Below, in pieces: positions 5,480 to 41,167 of a DNA stretch of 55,668 nt. The stretch is from Elsinoe ampelina (Eukaryota): contig ML992503.1 in assembly GCA_010093995.1 (NCBI GenBank), positions 62,001 through 117,668 on the forward strand, given 5' to 3'. Under the pieces are notes generated by a model. The model saw only the letters and a program-made list of their open reading frames with translations. It searched no databases and had not been told where the DNA came from. Both the position numbers and the translations under genes were made by a program. The first letter of the stretch is position 1, and every line of letters starts with the position of its first letter.

Positions 5480-5683
5480 TAATTACAACTAGTAAGATAA
5501 AGAGGTTAATTATATCTATTCGTTAAGATATTAAGACTTAGAAGAAGAAGAAGAAAAGCTAGTATATAAAGCATATATAATATCGAGAGTAAAGCGGCCG
5601 AAAGTCTAAGTTATAATACTAAAATTACGTAACTAATCTAAACTAGATTCTAACTAAATCTAGTTTATATCTATCTTATATTA
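5480..5683 (-). repeat. 3' LTR of element 2
   Basis: Ungapped direct repeat of 11465-11668, adjacent to the PPT. Confidence 0.95.
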
Positions 5684-8600: not shown

Positions 8601-11464
8601 TAAATAAAGAGAATAGGTAAGAAATAGCTAGCCGAGCTTAGTATAATAAAGCCTTTATTAAGGTACTTATAGATAAATAGCTCTACTATATCGAGCTTCT
8701 CTAGTAATAGATAGTAAAGAGGTTTAGTACGTAGTAGTTTAGCTCTATTCTTAAGTGTAATTTAATTGTTAAAATCTAGCCGATATAGAGAAAGCGTATT
8801 AGATTACTCTTTAGAGAAGATATTAGTAAACTCTCGTAGCTCCTCTAGGAGAACTACTATAGAGTCTAGTTCTAGCTTAGAGGCTATCTAGTAGTAGTTC
8901 TTAATATTCTTTACCAAGATTATAAACACCTTATTCTTTTAGTATTTAGCTACTAATACAAAGGTAGCGGCGCTAATAAAAGCGATAGTTAGCTCTTCTT
9001 ACTTAGTGTTACTTATATAGGTAAGTATATAGAAGAACTTATACATTAACTAAGTACTATAAGAGATTAGCTTAAACTCTCTCTAATTTAGCTTAAAGTT
9101 CGACCTAAAAGCTAGTAGTTAATATAGTCTAGTTCGTCCTAACTTAGTAGCTAAGCTAGAATCTAGTTTATAAGTTAAACTAGAACTAAACTAGTTCTAA
9201 ACTAGAGTAGTAGCTTTGCTAAGTTAGATTCCTAGATCCGAGCTAGGCTTAGACCTAGATTCTAGCCTTTTAATTAGCTATAGTAGCTCCTACTTAACAA
9301 CGACTAGTAAAAACTCTTCTTTGTATATAACTTAGCTATGCTTATAGTCGATAGTAGCCCTATTAGTCTTAAGCTAGCTAAGGCTAAGAATAATATTAAA
9401 ATAGCTAATATCTATAATATAGAAGGTAGTAAGAGCGTTTAGCTTACTAGAGATAGTAGTAGTAAAGAGAATACTATAAGTAACTTACTCTATTAGAATA
9501 CTATTATAAGCCTAAAGCTAAATAGAGCTAGCTAATACTACGGGGTAGCCGAAGCTCTTTAGCTTATTAAGGATATTATAATTAACTACGGCGCTAATAA
9601 GCGTGCTAGTATTAATAAAGGCTTAAAGCGTAATAGTATAAGAGTAGTTATAAGAGTCGTAAATAGTAATAGAAGTTATAATAGCGAGGATGTAGTAGCT
9701 AACGATACTATTTAATAACTATATACCTTCGGATCTATCTTAAATTACTCTTATTCTACTAGAGAATAGAGCTTATCCTTTAGCTACTTATTTCTCTAGC
9801 TAGAGAGGTTAGTAGACTTATAGTCTACTTTAGAGTTAAACTAAGGCTAAACTAGATTTAGTTTATAACTCGAACTAGTATTAACTTAGTTACTTAATTT
9901 AGCTAAGTAGTTCTAGAGCTATTATATCTCTTCTATAGCGCTAATATATATAGGGCGTATAGTAGCGTAAGTAGCCTTCTCTAAGGCGCTAGCTATATAC
10001 TTAGTAGAGATATAGCTAGGCTTACTACATGCGTAATAGGTAAGTATTAGAGCCGAATAGAAAGGCTATAGAGCTCCTCTAGTAATAGAGTAAAAGGTAG
10101 CTAAAGTAGTAGGTATAAAGGTAAAATAAGATATATAGATTAGTACTATAGTAGCGCGGCTTATAGCTAGGCTAGAGCGTAAGGCCTAAGTATACTTAGT
10201 AATAAGGTTACTCTATTAAATATTATAGTTAGTAGCGTAAGCCTTTATAATAAAGATAAAGAGACTATTAGTGTCGAAATTGACAAGGGCGGTATATAGC
10301 TTACTAGATATCTTCTAGTAGAGCTAGTAGAGTTATTTATCTTTAGTAATCTTAGCGTAGAGAGCGTACTTGTTAAACTTACTAATAAAGGAGTTAAAAG
10401 AAGTATTATACTAAAAGAGACTAGCGAACTAAGTGCGCGTAGTAGCCTTATAGTTAGAGTCTTTAAAGCGCTAGGCTAAGATACTAAGAGTAGCTTTAAT
10501 ATTAAGAGTGTTATTACTAGCAGAGTCTATAATAAGGATATATACTTCGCTAGAGAGATACAAATAGAGATAGGCAAACTAAGTAGCCTTAGTAGAGAAG
10601 TAGTTAGTGTTAGCACGTATCTTGTTCTTTATCTAGTGCTTAAAAACCTTAAACTATTCTAGAGTACTACTAGAGAAGATAGTAAGGTCTAGTATCTTTT
10701 TAAATAATATAGTACTATATATAGAGAAAGTAGGTATAGCGTGTCCTATCTCGGCTCTTAGCTAGGCTAGTTCGGCCTTAAGTTTACTAATATCTATAAG
10801 ATAGTGCGTAGTTTAGATAGTAAGATTATTAGTAGTGCTATTAGTAGTATCTAGTTCTACTAGAGCGTTATCTAACTAGTTATATAGATTAAGAGCGTTA
10901 GTATATACTAAGTTATATATAGTAACCTATTTGTTATAGGTAGACTTAATAAAGATAAAGGCCTTACGTAGAGTAGTTATTCTATCTATCTCTTATAGCC
11001 TCTTCTTAAGGTTAGTGTTACTAAGGCGAATAAGGTTATAATAGGCTAACTAGACTAGTTTATCGTTATTATTAGTAGAGAGTAGAGGGATCTTACTTAC
11101 GTAGTAATTATCTTCGCTATAGTTAGAGTAAGCTATACTTAGCATAGTTAGTCGTAGATAAATAGTATAAAAAGTTAATACGTAACAAAGGAAATATTAA
11201 AATTTTTTAGCTAGTAGCCTACTTCCTTTAGAAGTTGTCTATAACTCGACTTATTACCTTCTTCTTATATCTTCGAGGTTTATAGTATTAACCTATATAG
11301 TAGTAGCGAGGATCTATTATAATGTACATAGGAACTATAGTTGTAATAGCTTCTTCTTTAATTCTTTATAAGTAGTAGTTATTAGTAGTTACGTAAGTAG
11401 TAGAATAACTAGATAATTTAATAGCTCTATTACTTAGTCGTAGTTGTATAAAGTCTCGATATAG

Positions 11465-11668
11465 TAATTACAACTAGTAAGATAAAGAGATTAATTGTGT
11501 CTATTTATTAAAATATTAAGACTTAGAAGAAGAAGAAGAAAAGCTAGTATATAAAGCATATATAATATTAAGAGCGAAGCAGCTAGAAGCCTAGGCTATA
11601 ATACTAAGATTATATAACTAATCTAAACTAGATCCTAACTAAATCTAGTTTATATCTATCTTATATTA
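11465..11668 (-). repeat. 5' LTR of element 2
   Basis: Ungapped direct repeat of 5480-5683, followed by TSD GAAGT. Confidence 0.95.
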
Positions 11669-12500
11669 GAAGTAGCTAAGAAGTACTATAAAGATAAACG
11701 CTTAAGTACTTAAAGTTAAAGAACTAATAAAGAAGTACTAGTAATTAGAGTAACTCTACTAGCTTAAGGAAGCTATATACTAAGCTTATATTAATTATTA
11801 AGGTACTTATAAAGAGCTTATAAACTATAAGTCTCTTCTTAGCTATTAAGATCTATAAACTAAAGCTACTATTACTACTTATAAGTAGCTTAGAGAGTAA
11901 TACCTTACTATAGTTTATAGGCGTAATAAGTTTAAAAAGAGTATTAATTTAGCCTCTTAATCTAGTACTTAATCTAGTGCTTAATCTAGTACTTAATCGA
12001 TAGAGAGGCTAGCTAAAAAGAGGCAGTATATAAACTCTTCTATAAACTCCTTATACTAATCTTTACCTTCTTTATTATAACCTTCTCTAGTACTACTGTC
12101 TTTTATTATACCTCTCTAGCCTTAATAGTCTCTAGTCTTTTCTTTCTTCTTTCTAGTACTACCTTTTATACTATTACTACTCTCTCTAGTAATACTAGCT
12201 TATTCTTTAGCCTTACTAACTCCTCTCCCTTTGATTTTATAACTCTTACCTTAGTTGTAAAGAGCTTAGAGACTACTATAGAAAGTAGTTAGCTAGAGTA
12301 CTTAGAGTACTTAGCCTTTAAGTACTTAGCTATTAAGCACTTAAAGCACTTAGCTTCTAGAAGTGCTAGATAGTTAAGAGTCACAAATAACGCCTTTGTA
12401 CAATAGCTAGTAGTAGATTAAGCCTATTATACCTTTTTTAAGCTTCAATTTCAAGCCTCTAAAGAGCAAGCCTATACTACCTTTTTCTAGCTTTAAGTCT
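11669..12500. mobile_element. Unidentified RIPped repeat (continuous with 5023-5479, the target of element 2)
   Basis: RIP-type composition on both sides of the element 2 TSD. No recognisable protein motif. RIP signal fades at ~12380-12520. Confidence 0.5.
11956..11998. repeat. 12-bp tandem repeat (CTTAATCTAGTR x3.6)
   Basis: Read directly from the sequence. Confidence 0.9.
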
Positions 12501-17347: not shown

Positions 17348-17784
17348 GGTGAGGTCGTTGGCGATTGCCTGGATCGAAAATTAGGTATGTAGAAAGGAAC
17401 ATGGTAATAAAAGTGTCCACGCGGAAGTGTAATTGTCTTGGGGCGTTGTCTCATGAAAGTTGGTTACCCCACGACGTCTTCAATAATGAGGAGAGGTGTG
17501 GGGTAACTTTTGGGGTAGCGGGGCAGGCACAGTCACGTGATAAAGACCTCCCCTGGTGCCTAAAAACAGACCCTCCTCGCCGTCAAGCGAGTAGCATTTT
17601 TGCTGTCTCTAGGAACCGCTTGGCCGAGCATGATGAAAATAAGAGCAACATGTATGTCTGATGTGATTGAAGAGATGAAATAGTAATCTGATTTCGATGA
17701 CTACAACAGACATGGACAAAATACTATGCTGTTCTTCAGAATGGTTTTCATATGTTTTGCAAGTACATGCACCTACATTTGATA

Positions 17785-20177
17785 CTACAGCTTAGCCATA
17801 GCACGGAGGTCCCAGGCAGCTGCAAACGATGCAGGTGAGTGTGGATCCCAGTTATTCACGACCTCGATAATCACTTTGAACGTTGGACCTGGAACATTGT
17901 CCCACAGCACCTTCTCGACATTGTCTGTGAACCACTATTAGCTCTTTGATGACACAAGAAATCTCTAAACTATGCCAGGAGAGGGGAGAGGAGAAAGGGT
18001 GAGGCCACGTACTAATGTTATCGAAAGTATTGCCGCCATTGCGGCCCATGTTCCCGTGACGAGCCTCTCCGCCTGACACAACGATCAAGTTCATCGAATT
18101 TTGTAGTGCTGCTCCGGCGGGATCCGGATAGGCGAGGGTGACGACAAGTCGACTTCGTCCAAGACCAGCTGGAATCGCAATTTCGCCGCTCTCCCATCGC
18201 CTCTCGGACTCTGACCCGGTCTGGATCAGCCCTGGCACGTCGAAGCGGGTGCTGTCGCTCCCACTGCTTCTGCCGTCCACGAATGTCCCGTTCCGTATCA
18301 TGGCAAGGGAGCTGTCGATAACGACGCGACCAAAACCTTGTTCGTAATCGTAGCCGAATCCAGGTCCCAACTTGCCCGAGAAGTTGACCGCTCCGTTGAC
18401 AAGCAGTGCCTTGATCAGAGCGGCGCTCGGACGCTTGCTGCCATATAGATCTTCTATAGCTTCCCGCATGAGGGCGACACAACCGGCGACAAGTGGAGTT
18501 GCCATGCTAAAAGTGGAGAGATGGTCAGTCTTGGTCTCGCATTGTACAAATCGTGGATGTACTTACCTTGTCCCAGACATGAATAGCCAGTCCTTATCAC
18601 CAGATTCGCCAAACTTCTGGTGTAACCAATCGCCCAACGGCAAGGCCCGAGACGCAGCGGACAAGATGGCCACGCCGGGCGCGACGATATCGGGCTTGAT
18701 TCGACCTTTGCCTCCGACCTGGCCACCGATGCTTGTCGGAGGTCGCACTGGCCCGCGGCTGCTGAACACGGCAGTGTCATTGATGCCAGTGATTGGCTTA
18801 GCACCAGCGTCCTGTACGAATCTACGGCCATCGTTAGGCCTGCTTGATCCACACGCACCCACCGTGATAGCGTTCTTCGCAGCGGCAGCGGCACCAAGCT
18901 GGCTGGGCCATCGTGCCGGATCTCTTGGCATATCGCCGTTGTTGGCCGCAGCAATGAGGATGATGAAGTCCTCGTGATGTGGCGCCAGTACCGCGCTTGT
19001 CGGTTCGGAGACATCACCATTCGAAGGCAAGCTGAGTGGTGGTATTTCTCCGTAGACGAAACGATCCATTTGAGTGGCTTGATCCTCATAGTCGTATTGT
19101 CCGATCTTATCGGACCACTCTTTGCCCCAAGAGTTGCTATGAATGCGGATACCCTCGTTGTATGCCGACTCGAACAAACGGTTTACTTCCGAGGGCAATA
19201 CGAGTTTCTTGAGTTTCGGATTACTGGGGAGCGGCTTGCTCAGTGACTGAACCAGTATCCTTGCACCAGGTGCGGTGCCCTGGATCGTTATGTCACCCCT
19301 GGTTACGTGCTTGTAGATGCCACTTCCACAGATAGAAGCGCACACATGGGTTCCGTGGCCATTAGTATCATTTCCGTCGTCCCCACGCCAAGGGGTATCA
19401 ACACGAATGATGCGGTCTTTGAATGCAGGGTGTGCCTCGACTCCAGGCAAGATCTTCGTGCCCGTACCAAGGTCGAAGCCCGTGTCGGCAACGCAGATGA
19501 TCTGACCCGCACCAGTATATGTCGATGAGGTCAAGTTTACAGCCCCATCTCCGGCCGTCAACAATGTGCCGCGAGCGAAGTCGTTGACAATAGCATCCTC
19601 GTAGACTTGCTCGATGCGATTGATGAAATCGAGCTTAGTAAGAGCCTCCAGCCTTTCTCCATTCATGACGACTCGGACCTTGTTGCTACTGATCTCGAGA
19701 TCATCCGGGTCAACTTGCGCGGCCTCGGCAATCTGCGCCGCGACTTGACGGGCGATGATATTTGGGGCTTGATGAAGAATACAGTCGACCACGTAATCTT
19801 CCTTGACGTTCTCATCATCAATGGCTTTTTTGAGGGCGATAGTACTCTTCAGCTCGCGCAGATATCTGTCGAGGAAGAAGCCCGTTAGCGCTCCAGTCGA
19901 GCCGGAAGACTGTCTCTACTTACATGCTCACTTCCAGGATATATGTTTTGTCTCGCAAAGGTTGCAGGTCGTGAGGCTCGTACCGGCACAGATATGTGTT
20001 GTTTCCAAGATACTCAATAAGTTGAGCACCAGTCTTGACTATATCATTTTTCTGGCTCGGATCAAGCGGTCTTTTAGTCTGAACGAGAATAAAATCTGTC
20101 TTCTCAGCTGTACGAGGTACATAGGAAGGCAGATCCTCCGGCACAACTTTGTTGCCATTGACCAAGAATGGTGCCAT
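17785..20177 (-). CDS. S8 subtilisin-like serine protease, KP43-type, no signal peptide
   Basis: Triad motifs ICVADTG, GHGTHV, SGTS|MATP. Also IHSNSWG, FSSRGP, IKPDIVAPG, QGFG and C-terminal beta domain NNVEKV. Introns 19866-19923, 18507-18566 and 17925-18012 all restore the frame. Confidence 0.93.
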
Positions 20178-21201
20178 CTCCAGTCCTTGGGCTGTTGGCT
20201 ATTGGGGCTGTTGGCTATTTGGCTTAGTCGACTCTACAGCATGAACACTGTGGAGTTTGCCAATGTATGTGGGGCGTGACAGTATTAATAGTGATTAGTC
20301 CTCTAGCCCAGGGTCTTAGTACATCAAGCCGAGTGAAGGGAAGCCTTCGGGCCCTCGCCTAGCTTGAGCTATATGGTGAGATTCTACGCAGAAGCGAGCT
20401 CGATCAAGTCACAAAGCATGTGATTCGCGTTGAGCACAGGTTCAAGAGACCGGAATAGGCCGGAACACTGTGGGTCTGGTGAAGGATATTACGCAAACCA
20501 CTACCAAAGTCTTTCGGTGCGTGCAGCCGAGTGCATCACTGTGCCAGTATTACGAGCGGACTGTGGCGAGCTGAAAGTATAGCTCCAACAACAAGTCGTT
20601 GGACTAAGTCCCGGGCTTGACAGAGGGCATGCCGATCAGTTGTGCCATTTGCCAGGTTCGAAAGCATGTTCATCTTGGAAGATGCAGGTCATACCGCTCA
20701 AGAGCAGCCATTGCGTGTCCCCCGATATCGTGCAGCATGCAGCCTGCCGATCTTACCGTATGCTCAGAAACCTTCTATCGTGCTATTGGCTGATGGGAAG
20801 ACGGTGAGACCAATGCGGCAACCACCTGTGCTGCCCCCTTGCTATCGCGTGAAGTCAGAGCTTCACGTCTTCCTTCAGCGGACGTGTTCTTTTGCTTTGA
20901 TGCAGCTTGCAAACTGTCTATGCCCATCTCAGAGGGTCTCCCGTCATTGCTTCGCGATTTTCGATATGATTGCAGCATCGAGTGTATGTTAGTTAGTGAG
21001 AAAAGAGGATTTGGCAATCGCTTGATTCTGACTAGCCAAAGAGGAGGTCGTCGCAATCAAATGCAATTGTTGTGATCGAGCGGCTCTATACTGATGACTA
21101 AGCTATATAGAATCGCATTCACTCTTTCTCGAGAGAAGCCGAGCAGTATCGCGATCTTCTATTTGTGCAAAAAAGAAATGATTGAGCGTGTTATATCGGA
21201 A

Positions 21202-22389
21202 TCATAGAACGTGATCATTCGCTGGTGTTGCGTCCTTGTCAATAGGGAAGATATCTTGGTCAAGGAATCTCTTCACGCCGTCGTCACCATCCCAGCTTCT
21301 GCCTGTGGACCACATGGTGCCTAATGCAACGCACTTATCGACTGCATCGCGACAGCCAAGTAGGCCATTCCACTGGTCAAGATTGCTCAGATTGCTAGGT
21401 TCGGGAATTCCATCGGATGGATGATCATAATGCGCATGCTGGCTGTCGTTCTGACCAAAATAGGTGTGAAAGTTGAGAATCGCGCCCCAGCGGTCAATTG
21501 TGCCAGGCTTGTAGGTCAAGGGATCTATTATCTCAGTAAGCCCGACTTGGCCGGCCACAACCTCGATCACTGGACGCTCAAGCTTGCTGCAATTCTGGAA
21601 AACATGGAACAACTTACTTGTGCTCGCCTGATCTTGCTTGTTCAGAGGGACTCGCTGCGCATGTCCTATAGCATAAGAGTCCTGGATGACGTGGAACATG
21701 CTTCCTAGCGCTCGCCGGCGGAAGTCTAGAGCAGAGAATTCCGACTTGGGCGCCAACATATAGCTCAAAGGCTGGAACCTCGGCGGCACGGAACCGCCAG
21801 ATACATCGGGTGGTGAGGCAAGGAGATGTCCCAGTTTGGTGTCCTTGACTAAGGTATGTGGTTCAATTTCTCCGGTTGACAGCTTGTACATGACCTCCAT
21901 CCATATCATGACCCTGGATTTCGTCTGTTCCGGGTGCTCGCCTGCAGCAGATGCCATGCAGTGTAAGAACTGCATGTCGCCATAATGCGAGCGTCCAATA
22001 ACGTTGTAGAAGCGATCCCCGGAAAGTTCCCTCGGGTTCCAGTCTGAGGCGCCCATCTTGTACTTGGCAACCCACTGCGCACCTGAGGCGTATGAATGAT
22101 TGGTGCCGTATGAGTCGTTAAACAACAGGCCGGCTGGATCGTCATTCCAGATGACACCACGAACAAACTCCCAGGTGGCGTTGTCGGCGGAATCCAGTGT
22201 AGTATCACGCGCTACACCGCTGTTGGCGACGTTTGTAAGGGCAGACAGCGTTAGGGACTCATGGATCGGGGTATGGAAGAGACCGCCCGGGCCGCCGGCG
22301 ACAGCCATCGCTGGCTCGACCTCAGTTCCCTCATCATCCTCACTGAAACTGAGTTTGACGGCATTGGGGGCGCGCATAGTGGTAGCCAT
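21202..22389 (-). CDS. Hypothetical protein, putative trinuclear-Zn phospholipase C/P1-nuclease-fold enzyme (~364 aa)
   Basis: Long ORF with a probable in-frame 93-bp intron 21525-21617. Motifs FHTPIHE, WNDDP, RSHYGD..FLH, HVIQDSYAIGH, HAHYD. No signal peptide. The gene is well supported and the fold is inferred. Confidence 0.75.
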   Translation of the reverse strand: MATTMRAPNAVKLSFSEDDEGTEVEPAMAVAGGPGGLFHTPIHESLTLSALTNVANSGVARDTTLDSADNATWEFVRGVIWNDDPAGLLFNDSYGTNHSYASGAQWVAKYKMGASDWNPRELSGDRFYNVIGRSHYGDMQFLHCMASAAGEHPEQTKSRVMIWMEVMYKLSTGEIEPHTLVKDTKLGHLLASPPDVSGGSVPPRFQPLSYMLAPKSEFSALDFRRRALGSMFHVIQDSYAIGHAQRVPLNKQDQASTSKLFHVFQNCSKLERPVIEVVAGQVGLTEIIDPLTYKPGTIDRWGAILNFHTYFGQNDSQHAHYDHPSDGIPEPSNLSNLDQWNGLLGCRDAVDKCVALGTMWSTGRSWDGDDGVKRFLDQDIFPIDKDATPANDHVL

Positions 22390-23641
22390 TGTGCTTGATC
22401 AGAGATGGAATTGAAGTGATCGAGAGGTCATGACCAAAATACAGCGAGTATGAATACTTGGGGAGATGAGACTCCTTACAGCTGTCGAGCACGTGACTGC
22501 ATTCGCGTTCGCCTCGTGCCGCCATGTGTGTGTCTGGCAGTTTACCATGGTGTTACCCGACAGTTTTACCCGACATGGGAACCCTGCACAGCCTGCATGA
22601 CGCTACCAAGTCGGACTGTGCTTCTCATGTTTGCACAGCTCATCAAAAGGACAAGGTGCCCAGAGCGCAGCGAAACCACTTCTACCGTATCAAACGGCCC
22701 CCGCGAGCGGCATCGGACCGTACCACACGCAACCATCCCCCAGCATTTAGACCTCCTGCTGTCAACTGTCGCCAATTGTCAGACATCGACACCAGAACAG
22801 CTGAAGCCTGATCCAATTTGTCAATACCTAACGAGGATTCAGGGGGTTCAAATCCACTTGACTGCGTCCAACGCAAGCTTGGAGAACTCCGCGGAAGAGA
22901 CGCACGATGCAGGGCGATTCAAAGTCATATCCGGTCGCTTCCTGTCGAGGTCTTGCGAGTTTGCATACACTAATCCACTTAGGTGCTCAGGCGAAGGCCG
23001 CTTTACGCCAGCCACACGAGGATGATCTGCACGTCTCGTTGACTCCTTTCCCGAATGAGACACAATACTCCACAATAGATTCTCTATACACGTAATTGAA
23101 GCTCGTGCCGCAATTCGACATTGATCAGGGCTACTGTACACACCACCAGCTTTCACTCTGCACATGTACGCTGGACTTGGGTAGTCGCGGCCGAATGAGT
23201 TTACTACTAACCCTTGCCCCTGCGTGGCTCGGGCTTGTTTCTCCTGTTACGCACCTCTATATCGTGCAGATGCACCTCAGCTGGGTCAGTACAGGTAACA
23301 CAGACCCCAGTGGATGTCTTTGTGGCATCGCTGTCGTCAGCCTAGGAACCTTCACAATCACCGTCCAAAAGAGGCGACCGTGGACCCTATCAGACTACAG
23401 ACAAGCACGGCGAGAGATCCACACATCGGCTAGTCCGACAACAGTCGACCCCTACAGAGAGCTCACGACGTTTGTGCTGCATGGTGGGCAACATGGACAC
23501 CAGACGGTGTGTTTCTGCATGTGCTCCATGTCTGCATATGAGTACATCATTTGCATAGATGTACATTGTCCTCGTCACTCAGATGTCGTTTAGCCGACAA
23601 AGACTTGAAGACCATATGAGTACCTCTCCTGTTTCTTTGTC

Positions 23642-23648
23642 TATAAAT
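23642..23648 (+). promoter_or_regulatory. TATA box of the 150-aa gene
   Basis: TATAAAT ~145 bp upstream of ATG 23787, followed by a C/T-rich leader. Confidence 0.55.
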
Positions 23649-23786
23649 CCAGTCCCAGCCCCCAGCATTCACATCTCGTTGTAAAACTATCCCAATCACA
23701 TCACAGGGTGCTCCGCCCCGATCTCCAAGACACAATCGAATATAGCAGACATCAACGACCGTCCTCACTCTTCTGCTTCCATCATC

Positions 23787-24239
23787 ATGTCTACTACCAC
23801 TACCACCACTACTCAGCAGAAGGAAGTCCCTGCTAATGCCGAAGTTGGCTGGCAGGTGCTTTCGAACGACCAGGGCACCAAGTACCGGGTCAAGGCTGAG
23901 GAGTACGACCTCGCCGAGGAGTCTGCTTCCTCGGACGCTCCTGCCGCAAGCGGTCCTCCTTTCAAGGACGTCAAAGTTACCTGGAGGTTCGGTACCGAGG
24001 GAGCCCCGGACAAGGACGTGCAGGAGCAGACGTCTATCACGTGGTACAAGTTGGCCAAGGCCCCTTGGTACTCACCTTACACGTACGAGTTGACCATTGT
24101 CGCCAAAGACACGTACAACTTCAAGTTCACCGACATGGAGCCCGACACCTACTCCCTCGATGTCTACCAGAACGCCGGTAGCCACTACGTGCAGTACAGC
24201 TCCAAGAACCCTACCATCGTCAGCATCTCCGGCTCCTAG
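23787..24239 (+). CDS. Small hypothetical beta-strand-rich protein (150 aa), no signal peptide
   Basis: Intronless ORF with strong C/G-ending codon bias, CATCATG start context and an upstream TATA. Alternating aromatic/polar strands (YELTIV, YNFKFTD, YSLDVY, HYVQYSS). Confidence 0.85.
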   Translation: MSTTTTTTTQQKEVPANAEVGWQVLSNDQGTKYRVKAEEYDLAEESASSDAPAASGPPFKDVKVTWRFGTEGAPDKDVQEQTSITWYKLAKAPWYSPYTYELTIVAKDTYNFKFTDMEPDTYSLDVYQNAGSHYVQYSSKNPTIVSISGS

Positions 24240-24708
24240 ATGGAAGGTTCCAATACGATCACCGTTGTGCGGGGACGGGGCATGTCATATTAGTGATAGG
24301 TCGTGGACTCATCGATGGCCGAGTCAAGATTGTCGACTCCTCTTCTTTACAGCGTTTTTCGTAGCCCACCGTAAATGAGAACAGCCAACGCTTGACGAAT
24401 GGCATGGCACAGGCAGAAACCTTTCTAGCTCCGATATGCTCAGTGCTCCTTGTGATATACTTGATCGATCTTGGTATCATGGACTCTCAGGTCCGACCAT
24501 ACGCACAAGATCAAGTGATGGATCGTTGTGCTCCGTATATGATGAGTCTTCATCAGCCACATTGCACGTCGGGTATTCCATCGAAAACAGCAGATCGACA
24601 CGAAAATTGCCATCAAAGTGACTTCGTTGATCTCATGCTACGTCCAAAGAAATGGTATCTCGCTAAAGGCAATGCAGACGCTGACGGACCGAAAGAGGCC
24701 CGTATTCC

Positions 24709-27369
24709 CTACTTTCTTGAAAGCAATCTACTGATACTTTTCCTCTTTCCACTGCCAATGCTCGCCATTGATCCGAAACTTTCACTCTGACGCGGCCGAG
24801 AAGGTGATATCGGACTTACAAAGGAAACGCTGGTAGGACTCCTCGGCGAAGTCGCCGGCGATGCACGTCCAGAGTCTTCGCTGTCTGAAATGATGCCGCT
24901 CGAATGTCTACTGATGAGGGTCTTGATGTATGGAGATGTGTCGGAACATCGCGCCCATTCGATCTCGCTGGGATGACCACCAGCGAGCCAGGCACGAACA
25001 AACTTCTCGTTTCTCTTGACGATGGCGACTTCAAGAGGACTGAGGCCCGCACTGTTCTGTAGTGATAGTGTCGCACCGGCACGAATCAGAATGTCGGCAA
25101 GACGGAATTCGCCTTTCTCGGCCGCTGCATGTAGGCCGGTATCGCCATAGGTATTGCGTGCATCCACATTGGCTCTTCGAGGATTGTTGAGAAGCGTGAA
25201 CAAGACTCGATCGTGATTGCCGTGAATAGCGAAGTGAATGGCAGTCCATCCGTCAGCGCCAGCCAGGTTGGGATTGGCACGAGAGTCGAGCAAGAGCTGG
25301 ATGATGTTGAGGTGACCGTACTGGGCAGCAATATGCAAAGCACATTCCCTTGACTGGCTCATCAGATCCGGTTTGACGTCTTTCTCCTTGAGCAGAACAT
25401 GAACGATTTGATGCTTTGCAAACCTTGTGGCCTCGTGGAGGGCAAGCCTGACGAGATCCTCGGGCTGCCCAGATCGTTCGAGAAGGCTTGAGACAGTGCG
25501 CACATCGTCTCGGCGGATAGCTATGCGGAGATCTCTTTGAGCTGCTTTCGGATCAAGGTGGATCTTCGAGTCGTCTGTGGCGCCAGCCACGCACGAGTAA
25601 GTACCGTATAGAGGATCGCCTTGAGCGCTGTCGCTTCGAGTAGTCCAAGGAGCTAGATCCGGTGAATCACTCGACAGCGTCATGGACGGACGAAGTGGAG
25701 CGCCTCCAGAGACCGATTCGACCCTTGACATGGAGCTCCTTGGAGAGACCGAACTCAACGAGGGTGAACTGACTGCACGGTAGGTACTTGGTGCCGGCTG
25801 AGCTCCGATATATAGCTTCCAGTAAACCTCTCGGTGAAGTGTCTTCTCCTGAGCATCGTAGATCTTGAGAAGTAGATCCACAGTGTCAAGGAACTTCGGG
25901 TCTGATGTCGATGCAAAGTGTCTTCTGAGCTTAAAGGCCCTCTTAGCATCACGTTCGGCCACTTCCAAGAGATGCTCGCTGTCGAGACCGTGCTCTTTGT
26001 TGTATTGATATCGGTCATGGTTACCTCTGGAAAGACCTTGGTACTGGATGGCGGCCCTCAGTGCCTTTGACGGGTCTGAGTACTTTTCTGTGAAAGACTT
26101 CTGCTTGACGGGAGAGGCCGGCACGTATTCTGTGTCACCGCGGAGCAGTGCATGTCGGATCCCTTGTGCTTGGTCGTGCTGCTGCTGATTCTCGAGAATG
26201 TCCGCGAGGGTGGTCTGATAGTCCTCGTAGTCAGTAAAAGGCTTGCCGTGGCCGTTGTGTCGCTCCTGGAGGAGAGCTATGGCTTCACGTTGGTGTCTCT
26301 CCGCCTGATTGTACCACCCTTTCTGCATGTCCTCGGCGGCCTGTTGAGTGAGGCGCTCGATCAAAGCTTCCAATGGTTCGAGGTGAGTGGTATCGTCAAA
26401 GTCGGGTGTTGGATCGGCTCGAATGGGGTCCTCTGGCGCAAGAGACAAGCTCGAGGGTGACATGATGGAAGAAGGGTTACGCGGGCGGTTGTACTGAGCT
26501 GAGACGAACGGATCTGCTCTCGCCAGCTCGTCACGTGCGCTTTCAGACATTGTGGTATCGCTGTGCTTGTCCGAGAATGCTTTGACACTGGAGGCTCGGT
26601 GGACATCGACTGCCTGACCAATGACTCTGCGGAAGTCCTTCTCAATGGTCTCCTCATCTTCCGCAATGATGTTCTCTACCTTGACGAGCTCGTCGAGACC
26701 AATGGCAGAGTCATTGGGGTGCTGGCTTCTCTGGTCGCTTGCTTGAGACCTAACCGTCTCACGAGCTTGCTTGAAGACCTCGATGTTTCCCTGGCTCTTG
26801 CTGATCTGTGCGGAGAGGTGGCGGAGGGAGTCGAGAATTTCTGCTTGATTGCCGACATTCATGAGTCTGAGTCATGTCAGTAGTGATGGATCAGGCAGGG
26901 AGGGTGTGCCTTACACTTCATGACATGCTAATGAAACCTGCATCATCTGCAAACGAGTGTCTATAAAGTTCTCGAATCGTCGAATCGCTGCATCGCGTTT
27001 GTCCAGCTGCAGCTGCAGCAATGTCTTGCCGAGCCAGGATGGATGGGAAGGATCTCTGAGCAGGCCTTCAAGAGAGGTTTCGAATTGTTCGAGCACGCGA
27101 GTGCATACAGCAATGTCCTTGGACAGTGTCCTTCTCACCCGCTTTTCTTCATCGTTCAGTGGTCTGCGGGAGAGTGACTCGTTGCGGAGGTTGATGACGG
27201 ATTTGATCGTCTTGATGGTAGTCCATAGCGATTCGACCTTGTCCCTGAGTTCCTTTGCGGCAGTGTCGGCAGTCTTTGCATTGTTGACAAAGTCGCACAG
27301 TGTTTGGAATAGGCGTAGGGCGATATCGGCTAGTTGTACGGTCGACGAGGCCACCGCGAATGCCTCCAT
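24709..27369 (-). CDS. HeLo-like/SesA-type N-terminal domain + TPR-like + ankyrin-repeat protein (~870 aa)
   Basis: N-terminus MEAFAVASSTVQLADIALRLFQTLCDFV..AKTAD...ELRDKVESL is typical of the fungal STAND N-terminal (HeLo-like) domain. Ankyrin repeats ALHIAAQYGH, GWTAIHFA, GDTGLHAAAEKG. Intron 26867-26914 joins the two ORFs in frame. Confidence 0.85.
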
Positions 27370-28460
27370 GTCGACATGCAGGCAGTGTATGCTCGCACCA
27401 CTCTGGTTCGCATGTTGGTCCCAGCAGATGTCGGGACTGTAGAGTGCTTTCGCAGTGGAAAGTTAGGGAAGGATAGTCAGGGCAGCAGCAGAAAGGACAG
27501 CGAGTGTGATGCTGAGGCGCAGCTTTTGGCAAGATCCTTTCAGTTGGTGAGACGCTCAGAAGAAGTCGACGGCTGCCGAGTCATACTGCGGCATGTGAAA
27601 TGAAGACCTGACACCAAGGCAGACGGGAGGTACACCAATACCTACAGAGGTAAGAGAACGAAATCGGAATAATCACAGGGCTGTGCCTTTTGGCAAGAAG
27701 TAGCATGATCGACCTGGCAGGCCCCGGCATTGGCCGCTGTCAAATTGTCAGTCGAGGATCTCCAGAAGGAAGGAAACAACCCCCCCAAAAAAGTGACGAA
27801 ATGGGGTGCATCCGAAACAAACAGTTGCGGAAAAACAGTTGCTCTTGCTCATCCATGTGGGCGGCGTGGGGAAAACAATAATAATCTGGAGCAGGAAACC
27901 TTTTTTTCTCCGTCACCTCTCGCCTACCAATTGCTATTTCAGGCATCGACTGGCGAAGATCGATTCGTGCCTTTCGCTTTTCGGCACGCGTCTGCTTCAT
28001 CCCACCTCGCGTCTGACACGCTATCGACTTGCTATCGACCTTTCCATAACACAAGCAAAAATGATCCCAGTCATCTTCTCCAACATGGCATCGGACCTGC
28101 TTCGTCAACGTCCTGCAAGCCACCCACAGGCTCAGCCTCCGCCATTCGCTCCTTGAGCGTGTTCTGACCATCGATGCCTTCCTCTCGAAATTCAGGCAGA
28201 CCGCCACAAGACTAGTCGTCGATCTCCCGCCGCAGCAGAAGGTTGGTTCAGCTTCATCCATTGTAAGAAGACAGAGCATTATTCCGCCGTCTCCAAAAAC
28301 TTCAACATCTCATATTCTTCACTGCTCGATCGCTAGCTTTCTGTATCGCCAGCTCAGTCACGTGTGGCATTGTCCCTCGCTCACTTAACGGCTCCCGGAT
28401 TGGCCGTGATCAAGCAATGGTGCCGCCTCCAATACAATAATTCTGTATCCTGCAGCCGCA

Positions 28461-32930: not shown

Positions 32931-33306
32931 AGTCATGGTCAACTGGCATACCAAGGAGTATGAGCCACACGTAAGGAGCAATCACGCTTGCCCGAGTATG
33001 TTTGAAAGGGTTGGGAAGGGAGGTGGGAACTCAAACAAGGAAGGTCGAAATTCAGGAGAGGAAGTGAAGTGAGAAACGCCGAGCAAGGCTTTTATACTCT
33101 ACCGATCCAGGCGAACTAGATGGTAAAACCGATCAAGTGATGTCCCCGGCAGCTTGATTCGTCCGTAGCCAAGCAGATCGCAGGACATACTACTCCAATT
33201 GTGTATCCTGTAGCCCGTAAGACCGATCCAAGACGAGTCATGTTATGGAGCCGACCCGATGGCATGAACTGTACATTATACATTATAATCCATCTATGTC
33301 TAGCTC

Positions 33307-34392
33307 TCATGCCTTGAGTGCCTTCTTCACACCTCCCAAGAATCCGCTGTTGGCCATAGCCTGGCTCAGGTCCCAAGACATGACTCCGCCGAAGCTCGAG
33401 AATTGCTTGCAGTAGTTGATGATCGGTCGCAGGTCGGCGACGCTCTTATACCCGCTTCCAGCTGCAGTGGGACCGGCAGGGACGCCGAGGAAGATCTTGA
33501 CGACCTTCTTCTTGGAAACAGTCTTAGCGTAAGCGTCCCAGGTCTCATAGTTGAAGTTGTTCTGCGTCGAAGTCCCGCTGGTGAAGGATTGCAGGCCGCA
33601 GTAATTGTTGTAGAATTGGACGAAGATGGCATCGAAGCCGACATTTGCCAGCATCGGTCCCACTGCGTGGTCTGGGTAAGGACATTGAGGAGCGGCAGTG
33701 AGATAAAACTTCTTGGCTGTGCTCTTGTTCATGAGCGTCCGAAGGCGTTGAGCAAAGGCGACACTGTTGGTCATGGTGGTCTCCATGTCCATGTCGAAAC
33801 CGTCGATGACTGCATTGCCGAATGGACGAAGTTCGCTGGAGCCAGTCTGCTTGGGACCGAACATGGCCCAGAGCTTGTCGGCCCATGCTTTGGCGGTGGC
33901 ATTGTTGCTGAAACCGCCTTCGCCATATGTGGCACCACCAATGGATAACAGAATGGTTTTGCCGTACTGATTCTGACAGGTCTTTATGTCTTTCGTGATA
34001 TTCGGGCATTTGATCAGTTGAGTGCCAGGGAAAACGCCACAGCCATTTTGCTGGTTCGCAAAATTCAGGACCGGTTCGCCCCCTGGACCCGAAGTCATCT
34101 GGGTCAAGAAGGCCATGGGGATAATGTCGACATTGGAATCTGTACTTGTCAGAAACGTTCGCTCGGAAATCTAGGGGAGATTACTTCTGCAGTAGGTCGC
34201 GAGGCTCTGCTGTGAAAGATTACCGGTCCCTTGTCCATAAGAGTTTTGACCTGCGGAAGTGTAAGTCTTTGACGTTTACTTTCAATGGCCCTACTTACCC
34301 CAATACACAGCGACATTAGTGTTTGCGGTCGAGGAAAAGCCGGCGAGCGCGAGCGGTAGGCTGGCGAGCAGTAAAGATGACAAGGCGATCAT
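33307..34392 (-). CDS. Secreted GH18 chitinase, class III (Cts1/hevamine-like)
   Basis: Signal peptide MIALSSLLLASLPLALA, then VAVYW|GQNS, LLSIGGA, catalytic DGFDMDME, AAPQCPYPD, VQFYNNYC, GGVMSWD. Two short 5' introns. Confidence 0.93.
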
Positions 34393-35657
34393 GATGCTAC
34401 TAAGGAACGACTGGAGCCACTTTGGACTTTGGATTTGAAGCAGTAGTGATATAGAAAGACATTATACCTACACGGCAAGGACAGCCACGCAAGTCTCCCA
34501 CGCCTATTGACATTATTATCGAGGCCGTTGAGCTCAGCCTGCGTGGCACGGGAGCTGCCATGGAAGATCATTTTACTTGGAATGAGACCGTTGAGTGGGT
34601 AAACAACGACTTTGCGTGAGGCAATGCTTACATCAGACATCAGAATTGAGGTTTCTTCGTCAGTATCCATGGAGAGACATGTCACGAGTCCATCTCCAGG
34701 TTTATTATAAAGTCGTTGTCGGCGCGCAGAGCATAATAGTTTATGGGTGACTTTCGCCACCCGCCGCCACTGCTCAATATGGGGTGGGGGACGGCATTGT
34801 AAGAGTGGTACAGATACCGAGCCGGAGATCCGGTCGCAGATCTTGTGGTGATAGCGAAGGAGAAGACGGGAGAGCCGTGTGACTTTAGGGTTGAATGATA
34901 TTAAATTGCAGAGACCACAAACCTGTCAGCCCTGGAGTATTTTTGTTCTGCGGCAACCTCAGCACGTCCACGGAACGAGAAATTGCTCTTCGGGCCGACA
35001 AAGCGATCTCCCACGCAGAAGATCTCGAGCTTTTTTTTCTCGACTTTTCCTCTCATCTTCACGGCCGTGCAGCTCTGCTGGCTTCATCTCTTGGATAGCC
35101 GATGGTTCATTCGACGCTCTGGAACTTTGCCTATTACCATGGCTAATATCGCATCTTGTTCAAGACTGTTTGACCAACTCTCTACACCCTCGGGTCTTCC
35201 GGCTACCCTGCGTCACAGCATTGTGCCCTTCATTAGGGCCCAATTTAGAGCAAGCACAATGCTTGTGCAAGGGAGGGAGTTGGTGCCCATACAAGTTCGT
35301 AACGAACCAATCATTATACGCGTAATACCAGCTGTGTCCAGGATCAAGATAGAAAGAGCAGGAGGTTATTTCCTTGTAGACGATCCAGCCTGGTCCCTCC
35401 ATCTACGCCATCTGACTGTGCCCTCCTGTAATTTTGAGTTGCCGATGGTGTTTGCTGATCCAGTGGTCCTTCGCATGGACACGGGCAGTCACCTATGGTT
35501 CCCCATAAACAATTGTAGGTTTCGCTGCTTTCTTTAGATCTCTTGTCTCGAACCTGAAGGTTCTTATGAGCCATCAGAACTGCAGAAGTGGTATCACCGT
35601 CACCTCCAGTGGCCTGCAAATTATACCAGTCGTTTCTCGAACATCCACTACTAAGCC

Positions 35658-37624
35658 ATGGTATCCCTTCGAGGAGTACTCACCGCAGCCTTGCTGGCAG
35701 CTACCTCGCTCGCTGAGCTCTTCACCCATGACGAGACCTTCACGCCGGACTATGTTCTCGAGGCGACCCTACAATCTATCAAGATCAGCTGCAACGTTCG
35801 AGAGTCTGTCGTGATCAACGGCACCTCACCCGGTCCAACGATTCGGCTCAAAGAAGGGGAGACCACTTGGATCAGAGTGTGGAACAGAATCGCCGCAGAC
35901 AATTTCACAGTGGTAAGTCTGACCAGCAATCTCATGTCCTGTGTTAACCCTCCAAGCATTGGCATGGATTAACACAAAGGACTGCGCCATTCTCGGATGG
36001 GACACCACTTGTAGCTCAGTGGCCAATCCCGCAGGACCACTTCTTCGACTACGAGATCCACCCAGAAATTGGAGACGCCGGCTCATATTTCTACCACTCT
36101 CACGTCGGTTTCCAACAGTCTACTGCCCATGGAATCTTGATTGTCGATGATGCTGATGAAAAGCCATACGAGTACGATGGCGATATACCCTTGATATTTG
36201 GCGACTACTATGCCAAAGGCGACGAAGATATTGTCCATGGTCTACTTGCAGATCCGTTCAAGTGGTCAGGCGAGCCGAACAACGTACTCCTCAATGGCCA
36301 AAGCGGAAATGTCTCCTCGACTGCCACATCTGATCCTTCTTGCGCACCACATGTAATCGAAGTCGAGCCGGACAAAGAGTATAGGATACGAGTCATTGGA
36401 GCTACAGCAATTTCTTTCATGAAGGCGGTCCTCGAAGGGCACTCACAGCTCAAGGTCATCGAGGCAGACGGTCAGTACACCAAGCGGGCATCCATCGACC
36501 ATATCCAGGTCTCACCAGGGCAGCGGTTCAGCTATCTGCTCAAGACAAAGTGTCTGGACGACCTGAAGCAGTCTAACAAGACCGACTTCTGGATCAGATA
36601 TGAGTCTCGCGATCGTCCGACGAGTATCAAGGGTTATGCAATCCTTCGATACAAGTTGCCAAATCGACAGCTGCCTCTTCCCGAGCTTCCCGAGACTTCC
36701 CCAGTTCAGGTGCCCAATACCACCTACAATTATCTCGAGTACAAGCTTGAGTCTCATTCGCACAAAAGCCGAAAGAACTTCCCTCGTCTTTCTGAAGTGA
36801 CCAGGACCGTCACGATCCAGATGAACCAAATGCTCCGCACTGGCTCTCTTGTCAACGGTTCCTTACAAGGCGTCGTCGAATGGGCGTAAGTGCATCCTAA
36901 TCCCTTCCCACGTCGCAACACTAATCCATCCAGACAAAACGGTGACTCCTGGAAAGAAAACGTCCAGGCTCTCTCCCCCCGCCCACCTTACCTCGTCGAT
37001 GTCTTCACCACCGGCACCGTCCCCAACTACACCGCCGCCATCGCCAACAAAGGCCTCGATCCAGTCACCAATACCTGGCCCGCCATGGTCGGCGAAGTCC
37101 TCGACATAGTATGGCTGTCCAACTCCGGTCCCACAGGCGGCTTCGACTTCCACCCCATGCACATCCACGGCGAACACATCTACGACCTTGGCTCGGGGAA
37201 CGGGACATACAACGCTGCTGAAAACGAGAAGCGATTCAAGAACTTCACCCCTGCGAAGAGGGACACGACTGTTCTCTACCGATACACGGTCAAGGGGGAA
37301 AAGCCCTTCACCACCGCTGGGTGGCGGGCATGGCGCATTCGCATCACCGAAGAGAACGTCGGTGCTTGGATGGCCCATTGTCACGTCGCTCAGCACGCCG
37401 TGATGGGAATGAATACGGTGTGGGTGTACGGGGATGCGAAGGCGTTGTTGACAAAATTCCCCTCTGTGCCTTATATCCAGGGATACCTGGATTTTGGAGG
37501 CAGTGCCTTTGGGAAGGAGGGCCAGCCTCCGGTCGTGAACCATCATTTCGATACTGAGGATGGGAGTGGAAAGGCGCCAGATGACGAGGGTCATGGCCGT
37601 GGGCATGCAGACCCGGGCAATTGA
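35658..37624 (+). CDS. Secreted multicopper oxidase (AA1, ascorbate-oxidase-like)
   Basis: Signal peptide and the four Cu motifs V|HWHG, YHSH, HPMHIHG, HCHVAQHAVMGM. Introns ~35913-35957 and ~36886-36933. Confidence 0.93.
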
Positions 37625-37838
37625 GTTCTAGTGGCCGCGGAGAGCACTTCGGCTATGATACTAATCATACTCTTACCATGTCGTTTACTTTCCGGGATCC
37701 GACTGTGATCACATACTGTCGGTCCCTCATGCCGGAAGCCTTGAGTCATTGCGGTCGTGTTCCGGCACTGTGACGGCACTGCATTGCGTGGTACGTACCA
37801 GTTGTGCCTTCCTCAGTGCTAAAACTGATTGTTCCCGC

Positions 37839-38999
37839 TCACTTCTTGCTGAAAAGTGCTCGATGACTATGCGCAACTAGACTCCGCTCCCCTGTCGCAT
37901 CTCCGACACCAGTCCAATAGAAAACACCACCTAGACCTTGGGCTTTGACATACTCGCACTTGATGACTACAGTCTCCGGAACATCATAGGAGACGAAGCC
38001 GCCCTCCTGACCTGTGCAGTATGCTGCCACCCTGTCACGTTGCACCTGCTCCTTCATATCGGGCAATGGCAGATCCCGATACAAAACTGTGCCATCGCCA
38101 CCACCAGAGGCCTTACTAGGCTTGCCCGGACTGTCGACATCGGCAAACGATCGACCGTAAGCTGGTATACCCATAACGATTTTATTCGCCGGGATCCCCT
38201 GGGTGATGGCGAAAGAGATCGCAGTGTGAGCAGACCGCGCATCGTACGGGTTTTGCGGGGTCGTGCTTGAGTATAGCTGTGAGTGATACCCAGAAACGCC
38301 GGTCCAAGGCCCGACGAAGTCGTAGCACATGAGGTTGAGATTGTCCAGGACGGACCCTACGCGAGCCAACGGGACGTTTCGTAAGCACCATTCGCCAGCT
38401 GGTAAGGCGGCACTGAGCTTGTAGCGAGGTACAGGGAGGGAATTGCGGAGAGCCTGGACGAGAGCCAAAAAGTCCCTGCCTTGCTCGAGACTACTGGGAT
38501 GCTCCCAGTCGAGGTCGATTCCGTCGAATCCGTATTGGTCGACCCAAGATCTACACGAAGTTGCAAATTGTTCTCTTCCAGTCGAAGTAGAGGCGAGAGC
38601 TGGAAAGTGAGCGCTGCCACTTCCTCCTCCGACGCTGAGCATCAATTGGAGGCGCTCGTGAGTTGTCGCCTTGGCCAGCCGGAGGGCGCTCAGGCATCCC
38701 TTCGTTCCATCTACGGAAATGTCGAGGTCGGCCTTCTTATCAAGGTGCTGTTCAAGCGTCAGGTCTGTGTTGAACGAGGATGAGCCAAGGTCAGACCGTC
38801 AAGGTGCCATCCTCGTTTAAGCTGTCACCTGTTAGTGACATGCTACTCGTCCATTGCGATTCCCGTACCGCACGAATGCATATTAGATACGATTCAAGAG
38901 GTCGAGCCTCATAGAGCTAGGAGTCTCCCCCTTGTAGACCCGCCAGCTGGGATAGTATGCGCCGTGCACATACGACGAGATATCATCGGAGACATCCAT
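37839..38999 (-). pseudogene. Cytoplasmic GH18 chitinase (class V-like) with a premature stop at codon 39
   Basis: ATG 38999 reads MDVSDDISSYVHGAYYPSWRVY...LNRI*YAFVR with TAA at 38883-38885. Two introns follow, then LSVGGG, catalytic DGIDLDWEHP, NLMCYDF, YGRSF, GGVFYW. A sequencing error cannot be excluded. Confidence 0.75.
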
Positions 39000-39552
39000 G
39001 TTCACACCCTCGTTTCCAAGGATGAACACCGGGGGTTAAGGACGCATGCCTGTAGTAGACTGCCGACGATTGGTCTTTCCGTCAGGTTGAGACAATCTGT
39101 TGACTTGTGGATAAGTGTTCAGTAGTTCACCCTTGGGATGAACTGAATCAGGGTCTTTCTTGGTACTCATGCTTGTACCGAGGTTGACACAATCGCCACT
39201 CCACGTGCTCGATGCGATTTCGGGGATACTGTACCCATGGGACCGATGGTATAGGCAGCGTTGCATCCGCTCGACCCGCAAAACGTTCCATAGAACAACA
39301 GGGACGATCGCTAAACGCCATCTTTCCAGGAAGTGAGACATCTACCGGACCATGTTCTAGGCGGCAGGAGACCTTCATCAGATAATCTCTGGTCCTTACG
39401 ACACAGCATGGACGGATTGCCGTCCTCGTCCCGGCCATCCCCTGCCCAGACTATCTTGGTATCGTCCACAGTGGCGATCATGGTATCTCTTATGAGTACA
39501 GGGCATCGGCGCGAGATGGCGCTCGGTAGTCATTTTGAGATTGCTGGAAGTC

Positions 39553-40826: not shown

Positions 40827-41167
40827 TTTGGGAATCAAGGGAAGTCCGTGGTTAGGTTTACATAGTGATATACCGATCTTTATGTATCTTCGAGGAACGA
40901 TCAATCTTGTAGAGTAGGATGATGTGAAGATGGGCAGATCTCATGGAGGGGTGTGTACGAAGCATCCGTCGACTCTTTGCATCACTTTGAAGAGTGCCTT
41001 TCAGTGCATGTGCCGGATAACCTTGAATGCTTCCAGTAATCACCTCAACTCATAAATCCCACTTCCATCGAGGTTGCACGTGTAGCACTGAAGAATCGAG
41101 TAAATTACTTTTTTGAAGACTCCTGAAATGCGCCGCCTATTCTTAGCCTGCTCACACCGATGCCTCG

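Follow-up and report, generated by a model that had tools for sequence, protein, structure and literature searches.

A conserved subtilase, zinc-hydrolase and beta-sandwich gene trio in Elsinoe ampelina: a candidate protease-gated toxin module

Protease/effector death clusters, the activation of phospholipase C (PLC) proenzymes and Het-C-like toxins are known kinds of system, and the fungal locus described here appears to join them, with a specific activation mechanism proposed. In the fungal cell-death literature, a 2025 review and the HET-Q paper (PMC8851545) describe protease/gasdermin clusters only. The Listeria enzyme LmPC-PLC stays an inactive proenzyme until the protease Mpl cuts off a propeptide of 26 amino acids (aa); its residue W1 must be positioned exactly, and with a single residue added at the N-terminus no activity is left (PMC10576769). 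For the related Het-C domain, Zhang et al. described a link to PVC-metallopeptidase, the equivalent of DUF4157/eCIS_core, and to the PLC/S1-P1 fold (PMC3482391), and DUF4157 at the N-terminus is characteristic of toxins that contractile injection systems carry as cargo (PMC8213781). The locus lies at 17785..27369 of the window, by which we mean the whole 55,668-nucleotide (nt) stretch of Elsinoe ampelina DNA analysed, and holds four genes in which a first-pass annotation had seen a candidate protease-activated toxin or cell-death system. We propose that genes 1-3, encoding an S8 subtilase, a zinc-hydrolase and a small beta-sandwich protein, form a self-contained protease-gated toxin module in which the S8 protease would cut off the leader of the hydrolase and so complete its metal site, an account that we consider about equally likely to prove right or wrong.

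The proposed module is like HET-Q1/HET-Q2 of Podospora in that its cytoplasmic S8 protease, which has no signal peptide, is encoded next to a presumably latent effector with a short inhibitory extension, a two-gene clustering that is conserved across fungi (PMC8851545). However, the HET-Q1 effector is a gasdermin from which a C-terminal piece is removed, whereas the window effector has a zinc-hydrolase fold and would lose an N-terminal piece. HET-Q2 has 366 aa, and the window protease, at 728 aa, is KP-43-like, extended at both the N- and the C-terminus and free of repeats. HET-Q is an incompatibility and death system, while the window module is known here from its genes and transcripts. The Listeria PlcB/Mpl pair is secreted, bacterial and metalloprotease-activated, whereas the window module would be cytoplasmic, fungal and dependent on an S8 enzyme; the PC-PLCs of Listeria and Bacillus cereus begin with Trp1, while the proposed N-terminal residue in the window is Met (Phe, Tyr or Trp in relatives); and the Listeria enzyme and the window hydrolase have no detectable sequence-profile similarity, the fungal module also adding the gene for the small beta-sandwich protein. 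Het-C/Tox-HET-C, a domain of fungal heterokaryon incompatibility and of bacterial polymorphic and PVC/eCIS toxins, where it is linked to the PVC-metallopeptidase, is likewise all-alpha with a predicted PLC/S1-P1 fold and active site (PMC3482391), but its listed spacing is H-x3-D-x3-H, against H-x3-D-x5-H in the window family. Cargo of extracellular contractile injection systems (eCIS/PVC) and polymorphic toxins offers a further likeness, as bacterial members of the family have eCIS_core or Peptidase_C70 directly upstream of the hydrolase domain, in the manner described for such toxins (PMC8213781); the window hydrolase, unlike these, is stand-alone and eukaryotic, and would depend on a separate protease gene.

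No description of a fungal S8/PLC-like pairing was found in a literature search that left most subscription journals and supplementary tables outside its scope. If the account holds, a second protease-switched executioner, an enzyme and not a pore, would widen the picture of fungal regulated cell death beyond protease/gasdermin pairs, and would connect it both with the injected toxins of bacteria and with Het-C, another branch of this fold. The switch put forward here is concrete, namely that an N-terminal metal ligand becomes unmasked, for which the Listeria PC-PLC is a proven case. The effector would be a cytoplasmic zinc-hydrolase made as an inactive pro-form with an acidic leader of 27 residues. 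The neighbouring KP-43-type S8 protease would cut between Ala27 and Met28 (V-E-P-A↓M-A-V-A-G-G), and the newly exposed N-terminal residue would move into the trinuclear metal site as its missing ligand, like Trp1 in the Bacillus/Listeria PC-PLC and P1 nuclease. The freed enzyme would then hydrolyse phosphodiester bonds of membrane lipids (slightly favoured) or of nucleic acids and so damage the cell. The abundant small beta-sandwich protein would complete the trio, in the simplest case by inhibiting the enzyme or the protease, or by regulating either of them in an immunity-like way. The features involved are these, in window coordinates:

17785..20177, minus strand: KP-43-type S8 subtilase gene; exons 20177..19924, 19865..18567, 18506..18013 and 17924..17785 (stop included)
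21202..22389, minus strand: Zn-PLC/S1-P1-nuclease-like hydrolase gene (proposed zymogen); exons 22389..21618 and 21524..21202 (stop included)
21525..21617, minus strand: in-frame intron of the hydrolase gene, 93 nt, GTAAGT...AG, skipped in 4/4 runs
22309..22389, minus strand: acidic leader, codons 1-27 of the hydrolase gene, ending ...V-E-P-A; removal by the S8 protease is proposed
22291..22308, minus strand: M28-A-V-A-G-G, proposed N-terminus of the mature enzyme; the pattern in the family is [MFYW]-x-[IV]-x-G-[GP], located 13-15 residues ahead of the first His
22390..23786, no strand: divergent intergenic region of 1.4 kb separating the hydrolase and small genes, presumably their common promoter
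23787..24239, plus strand: gene for the 150-aa beta-sandwich protein, divergent from the hydrolase gene; transcript contigs at ~23708-24395

All four genes of the stretch are intact, transcribed and spliced, at the coordinates that the first-pass annotation gave, and its reading of them as lacking signal peptides agrees with ours for the three module proteins, judged by eye from their N-termini and not by a predictor. The transcript data were contigs of four public runs (X1, X2, X3 and X6; three studies) aligned to 17700-27500. None of the sources was recorded as RNA, but the contigs skip introns exactly and so must be RNA-derived: 17925-18012, 18507-18566, 19866-19923 and 21525-21617 are skipped in 4/4 runs, and 26867-26914 in two. 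Since contig depth is a poor measure of expression, it was not used to rank expression. Splicing of the hydrolase intron, together with homologues of 362-367 aa that lack these 31 residues, shows that the real product has 364 aa and is not the 395-aa open reading frame (ORF). The 3' end of the hydrolase transcript is at 21070, as marked by a loose poly-A contig end. The E. fawcettii orthologue D9617_12g037980 (395 aa) seems to keep the 93-nt intron, so that its annotation is probably 31 residues too long.

The three introns of the subtilase gene are spliced out in X1, X2, X3 and X6, and 706/728 residues of the product (97%) are identical to those of E. fawcettii D9617_12g037970 (P0130). An S8 domain at ~203-577 is preceded by ~200 aa and followed by ~150 aa without a known family. 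Assignment to Pfam Peptidase_S8 (PF00082) has E 1.8e-36 for the orthologue, the triad motifs stand in the spliced model at 212 (DTG), 255 (HGTH) and 516 (GTSMA), and the closest solved relative by sequence, the top PDB match, is 1wmd (E 6.6e-36), which we take to be KP-43; the earlier call of a KP43-type S8 protease was thus borne out. A Pfam scan found no repeats, sensor domains or domains of NOD-like receptor (NLR) type in it. Two details of the transcripts at this gene may be added. The spliced S8 contig in X1 runs ~835 nt upstream of the S8 start (20178-21012), to within 60 nt of the hydrolase poly-A site at 21070; this could be read-through or a long 5' untranslated region (UTR), and in X2 the contig stops at 20494. 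X3 has an extra 53-nt skip at 17724-17776, with CT..AC ends and a short side of 24 nt, just past the S8 stop, possibly a 3'-UTR intron.

Conservation of the trio is the first line of support. Hydrolase and S8 homologues have consecutive locus tags in six fungi of the Dothideomycetes, Sordariomycetes and Lecanoromycetes:

Consecutive-tag pairs: E. fawcettii D9617_12g037970/80; FSARC_6372/3; G7046_g953/4; AK830_g3275/6; MMC26_001416/7; Q9195_009560/1

Contig sharing, scored by exactly equal size of the longest contig, put 19 hydrolase matches on the same contig as an S8 match, which is 19/41 of those at ranks 1-54 (contigs of at least 5 kb). The small and hydrolase genes are adjacent in Microdochium nivale (MN608_09403/04), and their homologues occur on equal-sized contigs (758531, 9080 and 77640); for all three genes this is the case at 2157736 and 9080. 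Metagenome loci L082, L087, L088, L091 and L120 have the order of the window, small(-)/hydrolase(+)/S8(+), at identities of only 35-54%, and in L085 and L089 the small and hydrolase genes are present and the contig ends before the S8 site. The divergent small/hydrolase arrangement is kept in L082, L087, L088, L091, L120 and L089. Where identity was at least 45% and there was sufficient room downstream, 5/6 loci had the S8 gene, the exception being L095, in which a close fungal-like relative (L095:668-1737, P0065) has no S8 gene within 3.3 kb downstream. Several of its family motifs are altered (for example WNDDL, and RSHHGS for RSH-x-GD), so it may be a decaying copy. As L087, L088 and L091 resemble one organism or close relatives, the arrangement is counted as present in ~6 independent lineages, of which the window, M. 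nivale and the 9080-bp contig are three. Identity of all three module proteins to their Sordariomycete counterparts (Microdochium, Plectosphaerella) is 63-74%, but that of the hydrolase to the nearest match in another Dothideomycete (Aureobasidium) is only ~45%.

Elsewhere the flanks of the module are unrelated (PRISE, MFS transporters, alcohol dehydrogenases and other dehydrogenases, cutinase, esterase, acyl-CoA dehydrogenase), and in the window transcripts of all three genes occur in the same contig sets of the four runs. Judged by gene order and linkage, genes 1-3 are a conserved three-gene module. The trio is patchily distributed and may have been transferred horizontally.

The second line of support is the nature of the hydrolase. 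It has no Pfam family at E <= 0.1 (and no gasdermin match), nothing in NCBIfam or PADLOC, and no sequence match in the PDB at E <= 10; a Foldseek search of its model against the PDB returned nothing at E <= 0.001. By structural alignment, the all-alpha model can be superimposed on solved PLC and P1/S1 structures and matches only these folds. The motifs H233-x3-D237-x5-H243 and H318-x3-D322 are invariant across 44 family sequences, with spacings that we take to be those of PLC/P1 metal ligands. Including these, H43, D83/D84 (at least 90%), H135, H143, H233, D237, H243, H318 and D322 are invariant or near-invariant in the 44, presumably corresponding to PLC H14, D55, H69, H118, D122, H128, H142 and E146, a mapping that does not come from a residue-level superposition. 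At the level of modelled fold and motifs, the hydrolase is a member of the Zn-PLC/S1-P1 nuclease superfamily that lies outside its Pfam families; of the P1/PLC-like ligand spacing claimed in the first-pass annotation, the fold and motifs stood, while membership of the Pfam families did not. Some fungal paralogues of 500-600 aa end in a hydrophobic tail-anchor-like segment, which with one bacterial fusion to a lipase domain gives a slight lean to membrane lipids over nucleic acids as the likely substrate.

The third line concerns the N-terminus. The leaders are conserved in close homologues and variable in length across the family; 3/44 fungal members start exactly at the motif Met, and the others have leaders of 20-60 residues, often acidic. 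The N-terminal pattern is present in 167/248 family sequences with enough sequence upstream, its first residue being M, F, Y or W in 136/167, and in fusion proteins the motif comes directly after the protease domain. In the structural alignments to 1ah7_A and 3w52_A the first aligned residue of the model is 29, paired with chain residue 2, which would place Met28 at the position of Trp1, in a stretch modelled with low confidence. The cut context in relatives is V-x-P-M↓M, which may be likened to the classical subtilisin substrate A-A-P-F/M. Taken together, the conserved motif, the structural alignment and the Listeria precedent lead us to propose that the S8 protease cuts at V-E-P-A↓M-A-V.

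Searched with the family profile, 1.84 billion representatives yielded 1100 clusters at E <= 1e-3, 326 of them at E <= 1e-30. In this wider family the hydrolase domain is fused to or stands beside proteases of five classes. Among 24 long members, 8 have Peptidase_C70 upstream, 5 have eCIS_core (HExxH, DUF4157), 1 has a trypsin-like domain with a lipase and 1 has a fused S8, while 9/24 have nothing recognisable upstream of the hydrolase domain. Peptidase_C70 ends 30-60 residues before the hydrolase domain, in several cases at the end of proteins of 1000-2200 aa. Further fusions are P0116 with C70, L018 with a caspase domain, and 6/12 bacterial long ORFs with eCIS_core. The grouping of a subtilase, a pro-form Zn-PLC/P1-like effector and a small beta protein, as put forward in the first-pass annotation, is thus sustained by conserved order, shared transcript sets and protease coupling across the family. 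It may be that the window holds a fungal member of a widespread, so far unrecognised class of zinc-hydrolase death effectors gated by proteases, with ~1100 clusters at 50% identity and no Pfam model, in which a dedicated protease creates the metal-binding N-terminus; we regard this as tentative and somewhat more likely to be wrong than right. If it were true, one fungal clade would use a free-standing S8 enzyme as the dedicated protease, and bacteria a C70, HExxH, trypsin-like or caspase-like domain fused to the hydrolase domain; the fungal version would amount to regulated cell death or immunity triggered by a subtilase, independent of gasdermins and with a beta-sandwich regulator of a novel kind. 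The analysis also provides a fold and a working hypothesis for ~1100 sequence clusters that are blank in current domain libraries.

Some individual relatives may be recorded here. L018:7785-10817 is the bacterial fusion of the hydrolase domain with a caspase (Peptidase_C14), and P0329 a bacterial fusion of trypsin-like, LCAT-like lipase and hydrolase domains. Fungal paralogues P0069, P0070, P0103, P0113, P0117 and P0102 (450-600 aa) have an N-terminal beta-rich domain in place of the leader and a hydrophobic C-terminal tail, and P0073 and P0089 are a second paralogue type with a different N-terminal domain. The fused N-terminal domains of the fungal paralogues have no Pfam match even at E <= 10. 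With respect to the Het-C branch, neither Het-C (PF07217) nor VWA7_N (PF25107) matches any of the 44 family members or the hydrolase of the window; hhalign against a bacterial Het-C protein (L161) gave E 0.11 over 23 columns, with only the P-x-H-E-S motif aligned; and the protein-atlas neighbours of the hydrolase include clusters with VWA7_N (0.92) and Het-C (0.89), which are leads only.

Several results weigh against the proposed switch and its protease. The family has relatives in 192 bacterial loci, yet S8 was nearby in 1/80 of those kept (L040), and no neighbour family was common to more than 5/80 bacterial loci. In the contig-sharing count, S8 was found with 0/52 of the hydrolase matches at ranks 55-120. 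As S8 linkage is limited to one clade, other leader-bearing clades must use other means. The neighbourhood conservation that the first-pass annotation had proposed as a check came out mixed, present for the three genes across several fungal lineages, and absent for gene 4 and for S8 in nearly all the bacterial loci. Family members differ in the residue that precedes the proposed cut (A, M, N, Q, G, E, H, D), a looser specificity than would be expected of a dedicated protease. Residues 1-37 of the hydrolase model have a predicted local distance difference test score (pLDDT) below 50, so that the N-terminus, comprising the leader and residues 28-37, is not confidently placed. Proteobacterial members have signal peptides and an N-terminus ~40 residues before the first His, and the N-terminal-ligand rule may therefore not be universal. 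As to the fold, the family profile (A1) searched against PDB sequences found no PLC or P1 chain, only a chance xylanase match, and 1/44 family members matches Zn_dep_PLPC (PF00882; E 0.054) and 0/44 S1-P1_nuclease (PF02265). Finally, the subtilase lacks sensor repeats, so that no trigger is evident, and all three genes seem to be expressed together without obvious harm.

These last points bear also on a different explanation, that the module is physiological and non-lethal, the protease maturing a zinc phosphodiesterase for ordinary lipid or nucleic-acid turnover in development, autolysis or nutrient recycling. S1/P1 nucleases and PLCs have housekeeping roles too, the protease has no sensor or NLR-type domains, and the three genes are transcribed together in four contig sets with no sign of special induction, all of which fits such a role. 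However, a cytoplasmic zymogen with a dedicated protease would be unusual for housekeeping, the distribution is patchy with varying genomic contexts, and in bacteria the domain lies C-terminal to eCIS_core/DUF4157 or, in proteins of 1000-2200 aa, to a peptidase that would release it, as in injected or polymorphic toxins (PMC8213781, PMC3482391). Taken with the patchy distribution, the toxin architectures in bacteria and the design as a zymogen make a role in conflict or cell death likelier than housekeeping, and we consider the physiological explanation unlikely.

The small protein offers a further way to explain the trio. Its gene is more strongly codon-biased than its neighbours, with an effective number of codons (Nc) of 42.7 and a third-position GC content (GC3) of 0.77 against Nc 55-57 and GC3 0.58-0.60, and the AlphaFold2 (AF2) model of the product is a beta-sandwich (pLDDT 75.8) with an all-beta core at residues 56-150; the divergent, codon-biased beta protein of the first-pass annotation was in these respects correctly described. 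A word search found 9 homologues, including the one in the window, and more distant homologues adjoin the hydrolase gene in 7 metagenome loci. The conserved N-terminal P-x-x-A-x-V-G-W is faintly like the hydrolase P-A-M-A-V-A-G-G, so that the similar leader claimed earlier comes down to a short resemblance, P-A-x-A-x-V/A-G. No specific fold match was obtained: Foldseek against the PDB gave nothing at E <= 0.001 and the protein-atlas structure rows were all at template-modelling (TM) scores < 0.5, while the sequence gave nothing in the PDB at E <= 10, nothing in NCBIfam or PADLOC, and no usable protein-atlas feature match. Kinship with the N-terminal domains of the 530-600-aa fungal paralogues was sought by hhalign and not found (E 0.71 and 0.25). 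A parallel with the C-terminal beta-sandwich of clostridial alpha-toxin, as suggested in the first-pass annotation, is at most conceivable, the small-protein model having no specific match. Although both flanking genes are covered, 22605-23585 in the intergenic region has no contig cover in X2, X3 or X6. An inhibitor or immunity-like regulator is the simplest guess for the role of the small protein, with a targeting subunit or a second substrate as alternatives.

Taken further, the small protein could be a stoichiometric, antitoxin-like inhibitor, and the S8 protease could activate mainly by destroying it, with or without trimming of the leader. The conservation of the small gene beside the hydrolase gene with divergent transcription, its stronger codon bias, and the faint likeness of its N-terminal motif to that of the hydrolase would suit this, as would its word depth of 1670 (X2) and 1647 (X3) against 58-91, depth being a poor measure of expression. 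Activation of this kind leaves unexplained both the [MFYW]-x-[IV]-x-G-G motif and the fused proteases that stand exactly upstream of it, and we think it quite unlikely.

A small beta-sandwich protein in a fungus also calls to mind secreted effectors. Structural likeness of the small protein to SIX8 and ToxA was considered and discarded, as these matches are tied with dozens of unrelated beta-sandwiches. The idea that the hydrolase, the small protein or both are an outward-directed weapon, exported by an unconventional route against the host plant or competitors, could appeal to the nearest named relative being a plant pathogen and to the secreted or injected toxins among the bacterial relatives. 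Apart from the tied SIX8 and ToxA matches, it has to reckon with the lack, by eye, of a signal peptide at any of the three N-termini and with the occurrence of the module in lichen-forming and saprotrophic fungi, and we judge it improbable.

The first-pass annotation had counted a fourth gene as part of the system:

24709..27369, minus strand: HeLo-like/ANK gene, 870 aa, outside the conserved module; 48-nt intron at 26867-26914 spliced in X1 and X2

Its description as a HeLo-like-TPR-ANK protein held in part. The ANK repeats are clear (Ank_2 at E 9.9e-22 and four other ANK models, ranging from E 1e-21 to 1e-14); the HeLo-like match, PF17111 (now PigL_N), has E 2.4e-5 and 24.3 bits, under the Pfam cut-off of 27.2; and no TPR family was found by Pfam at E <= 0.1, a helical non-TPR linker being possible. 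Its adjacency to the trio in the window, the weak HeLo-like match and the clear ANK repeats could speak for a full four-gene system in which this protein acts beside the protease, either as the sensor or as a further executioner. However, a homologue is present in 0/80 related loci, including L087 and L120, which extend 7.8-8.2 kb past the small gene, the flanks of the trio elsewhere are unrelated, the HeLo-like match is sub-threshold and no TPR was found. We find a four-gene system very improbable, and on the evidence of these loci gene 4 is a mere neighbour and not a member of the module.

By protein search the window is closest to Elsinoe fawcettii, with best matches at 95-97% identity, and its ORFs are broken up as expected from fungal introns. 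GC content is ~0.30 over the first 12 kb and ~0.53 beyond. The AT-rich block (window 1-12000, GC 0.30-0.32) meets the gene-rich part ~5 kb upstream of the module, which has the look of a compartment border of the kind left by repeat-induced point mutation (RIP-like, degraded repeats). Downstream, at 33300-42900, lie two GH18 chitinase-like ORFs, a multicopper oxidase, a GH16 and a chitin synthase, and beyond this cell-wall and oxidase run are a gene with a fungal-rhodopsin domain and an MscS/EF-hand channel gene.

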